UHGV virus genome: UHGV-0075871
Strand: one strand, 5' to 3'
Length of the DNA: 37,149 bases
From: a virus
The notes under the pieces are model-generated. The model searched no databases. It was not told where the DNA came from and saw only the letters and a list, made by a program, of their open reading frames with translations. The stretch's first letter is position 1; every line of letters starts with the position of its first letter. A program made the position numbers and the translations under genes. Below, one piece after another: positions 9,369-9,748 of the stretch.

Positions 9369-9699
9369 ATCAGCAGCAGAGCGCAAAGCCGCTCAGAGAG
9401 CCAGACAAGCTGAATCCGGTGTGCGTAAGCTGGAAATTGTGCTTGATGCTCAGGAAATTGAAATGCTGGAGCGTAACTGTGCCACGCGTCGCCCCGGGCG
9501 TGCGCCTTACGAATTTGGTGAGTATATAGCGTTACTGATCCACCAGGATGATGCACGCGTGCGCGGGCGTATAAAATCGATCAGCAGAAAATGTTGCGGT
9601 AAGTGCGGCGAGAGAGTTCCAGTTAATTCATGCCCGTGTAATGGTGACTCGCAATGCTGGGTGACTAAAGGCTGGCATGAAACGAAATTAATAGTGTGA
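9358..9699 (+). CDS. Cys-rich putative zinc-binding regulator (candidate late-gene regulator)
   Basis: 113 aa; C-terminal CCGKCGERVPVNSCPCNGDSQCW; last early gene before a terminator and the packaging genes; stop codon lies inside the palindrome GTGACATGTCAC. Confidence 0.5.
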   Translation: MMAKSAAERKAAQRARQAESGVRKLEIVLDAQEIEMLERNCATRRPGRAPYEFGEYIALLIHQDDARVRGRIKSISRKCCGKCGERVPVNSCPCNGDSQCWVTKGWHETKLIV

Positions 9700-9748
9700 C
9701 ATGTCACGAGTAGATTATGCATGATGAATTTGATGGGTTTTGAATACT

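Follow-up and report, generated by a model that had tools for sequence, protein, structure and literature searches.

The virus genome UHGV-0075871 was analysed over its whole length of 37,149 nucleotides (hereafter the window), which matches the epsilon15-like podoviruses (Uetakevirus), among them phiV10, TL-2011b, PAS61, phiv142-3 and the O157 typing phages. Its genes are arranged in the order recombination genes, repressor, replication and small early genes, the gene at 9361..9699, the terminase genes terS and terL, structural genes, tailspike and lysis genes. This work concerns a 12-bp palindrome, GTGACATGTCAC, which lies at the end of two transcription units of this genome, and the gene family which accompanies it.

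The first copy, named site S1 (tGTGACATGTCACg, 9696..9707), overlaps the stop codon (TGA, 9697..9699) of the open reading frame (ORF) 9358/9361..9699. Read from 9361, this plus-strand gene encodes a 112-aa protein of the family of epsilon15 gp49 and N15 gp46 (phrog_536) and is the last gene of the early-right operon, which is closed by an intrinsic terminator 41 nt downstream of the palindrome. This terminator (9749..9775, plus strand) is composed of the hairpin GCCGCC-aact-atGGCGGC (9749..9766) followed by TTTATTTT. The second copy, named site S3 (cGTGACATGTCACa, 30013..30024), overlaps the TGA (30014..30016) of the plus-strand ORF 29720..30016, the last gene of the structural operon, and adjoins the hairpin (30025..30042) of a second plus-strand terminator at 30025..30049 (AGGCCGC-tttc-GCGGCCT followed by TGTTTTT). 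The product of 29720..30016 is a 98-aa Trp-rich membrane protein (phrog_3075), and its gene occupies a variable cargo slot filled by unrelated genes in other phages. Both downstream hairpins have the makeup of intrinsic (Rho-independent) terminators, i.e. a G+C-rich stem-loop and then a T run, both were folded in minimum-free-energy structures and both are conserved in relatives, with a varying loop in the second one.

An exact search found GTGACATGTCAC at these two places and nowhere else in the window, while 0.0022 copies would be expected by chance from the base composition, in agreement with the value of about 0.002 given in an earlier, sequence-only reading of this DNA (the original prediction). 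Its statement that the palindrome occurs twice, each time on the TGA of a gene and ahead of a terminator, was likewise confirmed by the exact search and by the positions of ORFs and hairpins. As such, 12-bp perfect palindromes are ordinary here (10 against 9.1 expected), and it is the recurrence that is exceptional: GTGACATGTCAC is the sole one of this length occurring more than once. A second recurring palindrome is the 10-mer GCTGATCAGC, found twice, at 3122 and 7262. The only near copy of the 12-mer, GTGACATGGCAC, has one mismatch and is located at 15495..15506, within the gene 15443..15739; the identical mismatch is found in all close relatives, and this coding sequence with a broken arm is unlikely to be a functional site.

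Palindrome sites in epsilon15-like phages

Whole-genome comparison with the relatives revealed three syntenic palindrome sites. S1 is located on or after the stop codon of the epsilon15 gp49 homologue and upstream of terS, S2 with the terL-side hairpin on one side and a cargo gene of the minus strand on the other, and S3 after the last gene of the structural operon, abutting the terminator. All three are exact in epsilon15, PAS61, SPN1S and Tyrion, in which the flanking sequences are unrelated. The S1 position is retained in phiV10 (one mismatch), TL-2011b, PAS61, phiv142-3, epsilon15, Tyrion, SPN1S, BUCT711 and EC.W1-9. Absence of the palindrome from equivalent junctions in related phages had been named in the original prediction as grounds for abandoning it; the sites are present there. 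In Uetakeviruses the order in the transcript is invariably stop codon, palindrome and terminator, and the distance between S1 and S2, which stand around terS-terL, amounts to about 2.2-3.2 kb.

Departures from the exact sequence are few. The phiV10 reference (L001, position 39101, at the record junction) has a point mutation in S1, GTGACATGTTAC, with S2 and S3 intact, and phiv142-3 has a single central change in S2. The phiV10 record starts in the middle of the palindrome, and a physical genome end or pac site was therefore considered; it was rejected, since the depositors merely opened the record after the last stop codon.

The surroundings of the sites vary widely. The S3 palindrome and its hairpin are conserved in eight relatives having at least five unrelated upstream sequences; those of the window, phiV10, TL-2011b, epsilon15 and Tyrion are mutually unrelated, and the palindrome with the hairpin persists in all of them. 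In a set of 80 close relatives taken from IMG/VR, the right side of S2 continues in more than 10 different ways, and the sequence downstream of S1 exists in two main variants, diverging directly after GTGACATGTCACGA. Neutral descent cannot keep 12 of 12 bases amid such variable surroundings, which argues that the site is under selection.

S2 is missing from the window. In place of the hairpin, palindrome and p03-like gene of the relatives stands a minus-strand cargo ('moron') cassette (about 11881..12855), which is unique to this phage, and homology with relatives restarts only at 12856. The cassette gene (11904..12794, minus strand, ATG at 12794..12792) encodes a 296-aa coiled-coil-like protein (phrog_13369) for which no Pfam or PADLOC hit was obtained; PADLOC gave no defence-system hits among the genes neighbouring the palindromes either. 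Remote homologues of this protein (26-41% identity) are present at the same locus in EC.W1-9 and BUCT711, and both these phages are devoid of S2. Half-sites of the palindrome had been reported at the 5' end of the cargo gene. The 9-mer in question, ATGTCACGG (minus sense CCGTGACAT), does occur twice as a direct repeat 21 bp apart: the first copy (12772..12780) is within the coding sequence and the second overlaps the ATG, at 12793..12801, one position away from the coordinate given originally. The proposed relation to the palindrome is unsupported, because the cassette is unique and its distant homologues do not share the half-sites (GTGACAT is not present at the starts of the moron homologues in EC.W1-9 and BUCT711). 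For the same reasons, and with homology resuming at 12856, we rejected the idea that they are remnants of S2; they are probably a local duplication or chance, unrelated to the palindrome. An operator-like site (12826..12842) is located upstream of the cargo gene start, and a tRNA-Arg gene (anticodon TCT; 13043..13119, minus strand) is placed between the cassette and the structural operon, likewise in phiv142-3.

The proposed recognition motif and the gp49 family

The product of 9361..9699 matched the phrog_536 profile with an E value of 3.9e-54 (residues 1-111 on profile positions 2-114 of 115), and in tblastn it was 75% identical to epsilon15 gp49 and 34% identical to N15 gp46. It has no Pfam or NCBIfam family and is listed as hypothetical by the sources. 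At 50% identity this small family has 185 representatives, and its homologues are present in phages otherwise unrelated to Uetakeviruses: podo-, sipho- and myoviruses, linear plasmid prophages, and prophages of many Enterobacterales, Vibrio and Pseudomonas. Longer members, examined as possible domain fusions, appear to be artefacts of frameshift or assembly, with Ead/Ea22 and weak TerL fragments.

Scanning a single genome from each bacterial species provided 52 prophage loci, which were analysed along with eleven complete phages. The palindrome generalised to a 14-bp motif of two-fold symmetry, Y-GTGAC-NN-GTCAC-R, and over 101 unique sites the base frequencies were Y(96%)-GTGAC-A(77%)-T(77%)-GTCAC-R(96%), so that the arms are invariant and the centre and outer flanks vary. 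The prophage loci contain 69 GTGAC-NN-GTCAC sites in 978 kb against 0.93 expected, and the complete phages 25 against 0.43. In both sets the enrichment is confined to inverted arms with a 2-bp spacer, while spacers of 0, 1 and 3-8 bp, as well as everted and direct arrangements of the arms, remained at chance level. No compensatory arm changes were noticed among about 100 sites, only single-sided mutations, and sites were found in either orientation and within genes on either strand. Invariant arms, a tolerant centre and two-fold symmetry reaching into the flanks lead us to expect a symmetric protein oligomer on double-stranded DNA.

The motif accompanies the gene in 50 of the 52 prophage loci, and in 35 of them a site falls within -15..+40 of the homologue's stop codon; one to three further copies are found elsewhere in the same genome. 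Closeness to ORF stops in general (76 of 93 sites, compared with 25 of 99 random positions) is inflated, as the motif has TGA on both strands, and was not relied on. In some lineages the stop codon is separate and the site follows at +5, +7 or +13, which shows that coding constraint does not produce the motif.

Individual phages illustrate this association. The lambdoid phage Chlobot has the exact palindrome just after the gene. In AH07 GTGACAGGTCAC is on the stop codon and one exact copy lies elsewhere. N15 has GTGACTGGTCAC on the stop codon of gene 46 and two more copies; its sites, GTGAC(TG/CA)GTCAC (locus L213; 28550, 33237 and 39269), are situated upstream of the antirepressor operon leader, inside repA and on the gene 46 stop codon, respectively. 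The myovirus ZF40 carries one site just after the gene and two more bracketing the cI-cro-cII region. These two (L008; 5125 and 7622), like those of L262, L263, L136, L138 and L160, are exact palindromes 2.1-2.5 kb apart, both in coding sequence, and such pairs, with a spacing like that of S1 and S2, could serve looping or act as paired roadblocks. Three GTGAC-NN-GTCAC sites are present in Vibrio phage K308, one of them 20 nt before the terS start codon and the one nearest the homologue about 225 bp past its stop. A P2-like Yersinia phage has one exact and one near copy, the nearest about 3.4 kb from the homologue. In Pseudomonas, Pseudoalteromonas and Motilimonas prophages, whose proteins are about 25-30% identical, the motif lies on the homologue's TGA and recurs two to three times per locus.

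The AlphaFold2 model built with a shallow alignment was poor (predicted local distance difference test, pLDDT, 68.6) and was superseded by one based on a diverse alignment (pLDDT 91.9). In the latter, residues 5-19 form a basic helix and 22-28 an extended segment; helices at 30-42 and 52-74 follow, then a knuckle rich in Cys and a short helix at the C-terminus. Arginines are frequent at the N-terminus of the protein. The invariant residues are R13 and three Cys, while R8, E54, L59, P87 and G95 are almost invariant. The best structural reading, supported but not proven, is that of a ribbon-helix-helix (RHH)-like DNA binder with a Cys4 zinc ribbon. A C4 zinc finger of the DksA/TraR type was rejected: only weak YbiI/TraR profile matches were obtained (E 0.05-0.1), the second CxxC has no fourth Cys, the invariant Cys pattern differs and the model is without a coiled-coil hairpin.

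Candidate binders and rival explanations

We consider it quite probable, on comparative grounds, that the palindrome is the binding site of the protein family encoded by 9361..9699. The product of this reading frame had been listed in the original prediction among candidate regulators, and the co-occurrence of motif and family, usually at the gene's own stop codon, strongly supports it as the binding partner. A symmetric oligomer would engage the duplex either as one dimer reaching both arms or as two RHH dimers on the two 7-bp halves.

The original prediction had also offered a recombination hot spot, and of the rivals this one survives best, although we regard it as improbable: the palindromes would be linkers for cassette exchange, possibly with a bound protein joining two of them, and would have a mainly evolutionary role. 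Breaks in homology are indeed located at the sites or beside them. Of the window, Chlobot shares only 9361..9692, TL-2011b homology begins at 30012, the two variants downstream of S1 split right after GTGACATGTCACGA, S2 has its many right flanks, S3 has its unrelated upstream genes, and a cargo cassette replaces S2 in the window. These breakpoints, however, are equally explained by a selected site flanked by variable cargo slots. Moreover, 12-14 bp are too few for RecA or Red-type exchange, and the conserved island takes in the adjacent terminator, and at S2 also the cargo gene's 3' end, so that the junctions do not coincide with the palindrome itself. Sites lie inside conserved genes in ZF40-like phages, N15 and others, no recombinase co-varies with the motif, and arms that do not change between Pseudomonas and E. 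coli phages better fit recognition by a protein.

A host protein might be that binder. MatP organises the Ter macrodomain of the E. coli chromosome. Its 13-bp site, matS, reads GTGAC[AG]N[TC]GTCAC, with a 3-bp spacer (PMC3603311), and MatP contains an RHH core (PMC12756933). The likeness is evident: half-sites GTGAC and GTCAC are identical, both elements are short palindromes dispersed in few copies, the binder has an RHH core (predicted for the phage protein), and MatP bridges distant sites. If the sites were targets of MatP or of another conserved DNA-binding protein of the host, linking the phage DNA to the organisation of the host chromosome, the adjacent phage gene would be incidental, which seems to us very improbable. 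The phage motif is 12 bp long with a 2-bp spacer in all of about 100 sites, while the matS spacing stays at chance (2 versus 0.93 expected in the 52 loci, 1 versus 0.43 in the complete phages), and canonical matS has been reported absent from prophages (PMC3603311). The phage sites reside in phage genomes, including those of Pseudomonas phages, and motif and gene occur together in Pseudomonas prophages too. To our knowledge, the Pseudomonas host has no MatP. A host binder would also leave unexplained why the site is tied to the stop codon of a phage gene in unrelated phages. Nor was homology detected between the phage protein and E. coli MatP (hhalign probability 0.18%; no PF06303 or PF17414 hit). 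In the search for MatP relatives, all of the matches listed were more than 97% identical except one at 69%, and nothing was added to the profile. The model of the phage protein is without the four-helix bundle and C-terminal coiled coil of MatP and has a zinc ribbon instead. Judged from sequence, the phage pair is not a member of the matS/MatP system, though its mode of action may be related. Given the identical arms and the predicted RHH core, it is conceivable that the pair is an evolutionary relative or mimic of MatP/matS, which may bridge phage sites or interfere with host Ter organisation.

Action of the element as RNA is about as improbable as a host binder. It would form a GUGA-CAUG-UCAC hairpin in the 3' untranslated region, immediately ahead of a terminator or a ribosome-binding site, bound by a protein controlling mRNA stability, termination or translation of the adjacent gene. 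The fixed Uetakevirus order of stop codon, palindrome and terminator is compatible with this, as are the arginine-rich N-terminus of the protein and the location of a site 10-20 nt upstream of a start codon, beside the Shine-Dalgarno sequence, in N15, Chlobot, K308, L274 and L275. The hairpin is marginal, though (-1.2 kcal/mol, not better than shuffled sequences), and the missing compensatory arm changes, the occurrence of sites in either orientation and in genes of either strand, a symmetry reaching the Y/R flanks that is typical of duplex DNA read by a symmetric oligomer, and a protein fold resembling DNA-binding RHH proteins all speak against it. Rfam gave nothing relevant in three related loci. 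Least credible of all are back-to-back -35-like hexamers driving late or antisense transcription: GTGACA, present on both strands, matches TTGACA in 5 of 6 positions and can be paired with weak -10 hexamers at 9696..9725 (plus strand) and 30024..29995 (minus strand), but no -10 is conserved at a fixed distance across relatives, the plus-strand -10 at S3 would fall in the terminator hairpin, the arm base beyond the hexamer and the Y/R flanks are conserved without being required of a -35, and promoter-like counts are not above those of shuffled sequence.

Proposed role at module boundaries

Returning to the gp49-family protein as the probable binder, its position in the genome bears on what it might do. 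In Uetakeviruses the 9361..9699 homologue is the last early gene before terS. In Vibrio K308 and in Pseudomonas and Motilimonas prophages the homologue with its site is followed by a strong sigma-70-like promoter, at least one intrinsic terminator, holin and lysozyme. The -35 hexamer lies 51-110 nt downstream of the site, at a variable distance (L272, L273, L275 and K308). In L272 and L273 the promoter matches 10 of 12 positions and precedes two terminators, and in the Pseudomonas loci the two terminators between promoter and lysis genes are strong and intrinsic. In L275 and K308 a second site precedes the start codon of terS by 16-20 nt. We also observed that the late-promoter leaders downstream of gp49 homologues (L272, 6102..6310; L273, 10450..10650; L275, about 10430..10570; L214, 33335..33500) share a second -10-like hexamer, TAGCGT/TATTGT, a few bases past the -10, then GGTG or GGTT and one to three terminators, a layout resembling the sigma-dependent pause elements used by Q-type antiterminators.

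The transcription units have operators of another kind at their starts. The window contains 13 matches (with at most 2 mismatches) to the ATTACC-N5-GGTAAT type annotated in epsilon15, against 1.0 expected. They are located at 3569..3647, 4343, 6674, 6736, 9785, 9803, 12826, 13440, 30972 and 32400, i.e. at the immunity region and before terS (9785/9803), the cargo cassette, the structural genes (13440) and the tailspike (32400). The two before terS (9785..9819, plus strand) lie between the S1 terminator and that gene, where the next transcription unit starts. This distribution points to direct silencing of every late transcription unit by the prophage repressor. The units appear to begin at operator-like sites and to carry the palindromes at their opposite, terminating ends. 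The palindrome as a repressor operator was accordingly dismissed, the epsilon15-type operator being another motif.

Taken as a whole, we lean towards the proposal that the palindrome is the recognition site of the gp49 family and that the protein bound there controls RNA polymerase at module boundaries in the early-to-late switch. The protein would act at two sites here, and at three in most relatives, each placed between a stop codon and an intrinsic terminator where the early-right, terminase/cargo and structural operons end. Such boundary control is favoured because of the placement of the sites at operon ends and the last-early position of the gene, like that of lambda Q. Any particular downstream mechanism is a tentative matter. 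Control of the read-through or antitermination type comes first as a guarded suggestion, backed by the Q-like gene position and the order of stop codon, site and terminator at all three Uetakevirus sites. Roadblock or repression is a somewhat weaker candidate, and architectural bridging or other roles take the rest of our belief; the paired sites of the ZF40 type and the similarly spaced S1 and S2 could point to bridging or roadblocks. Thus the site for a late-gene regulator or antitermination factor that the original prediction had offered has gained a strongly supported candidate for its protein partner, with a last-early gene position in two phage groups; roadblock, repressor and architectural roles are the other candidate functions. 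More speculatively, and with little confidence, the gp49 family may represent a novel class of transcription elongation regulators loaded on DNA, functionally analogous to lambda Q but with an RHH and zinc-ribbon scaffold. Loading sites would then lie at the end of the last early gene and upstream of each terminator to be overridden, and polymerase from the early operon would read into the late genes.

Several observations weigh against this proposal. The link between gene family and motif is correlative, and two loci, L230 and L255, have the gene without a site within 20 kb. Long ORFs contain about one third of the sites, and a terminator is close to only about 20-28 of the 69, so that the terminator association of this window is not family-wide. 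Antitermination may be unneeded, because epsilon15-like late operons carry their own repressor operators. The variable distance of 51-110 nt by which the site precedes the -35 in the Vibrio and Pseudomonas-type phages is not what a lambda Q binding element or a phased activator would show, and the carriers N15, AH07 and Chlobot also encode a Q-like protein. Finally, operators do not typically lie at the 3' end of the gene that encodes their regulator.

Known systems other than matS/MatP were also compared. The module of lambda Q is similar in arrangement: its regulator is the last early gene directly upstream of the late genes, the window sites precede terminators, and in the Vibrio and Pseudomonas-type relatives a promoter and then terminators stand between the gene and the lysis genes, as in Q/PR'/tR'. 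The window itself follows this order with the gene, S1, the terminator at 9749 and terS, and so do L272 and L273. The Q site lies within the promoter, between -35 and -10; the phage site does not, and what follows it in the window is a terminator and not a promoter. No sequence or fold similarity to the Q families was found, nor any Pfam Q-family hit for the phage protein.

The omega repressor of plasmid pSM19035 is an RHH protein which binds 7-bp heptads WATCACW and acts as a global regulator with several target loci per replicon. The 7-bp units, possibly in inverted pairs, would be a shared trait, and the motif half TGTCACA resembles the heptad AATCACA. Omega, however, has no zinc ribbon and binds 7-10 heptads arrayed in the promoters ahead of its target genes, in contrast to the single inverted pairs of the phages, mostly at gene 3' ends. 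Classical RHH repressors (P22 Arc, Mnt, CopG, MetJ and antitoxins) have a beta-alpha-alpha core, as is predicted for the phage protein, and a short symmetric target. Their operators lie across the promoter of the operon they regulate, often that of the repressor itself, and vary from relative to relative, whereas the phage sites are at stop codons and gene 3' ends, show no conserved -10/-35 geometry and keep invariant arms down to about 25% protein identity. As in parB-parS, a cis site next to the gene of its predicted binder is co-inherited with it, but there is no adjacent partner ATPase, most carriers are integrating prophages and the protein is unrelated to ParB. For each of the systems compared, at least one defining feature is not found in the phage pair.

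Full-text literature searches found no description of the 12-mer, of a Uetakevirus palindrome or of epsilon15 gp49. Specificities of phage regulators normally diverge quickly, and arms that stay invariant over proteins of about 25% identity are unusual for them. Also unusual are a site located where the gene of its proposed binder ends, the predicted combination of an RHH core and a zinc ribbon, and the matS-like half-sites, whose match raises the question of cross-talk or common ancestry with host chromosome organisation. For annotation of these phages, the 14-bp motif offers a compact marker of operon ends and cargo slots. If the proposal is true, a small family listed as hypothetical would obtain a DNA target and a regulatory role, and a missing piece would be added to the early-to-late program of epsilon15-like phages, including the O157 typing and serotype-converting ones.

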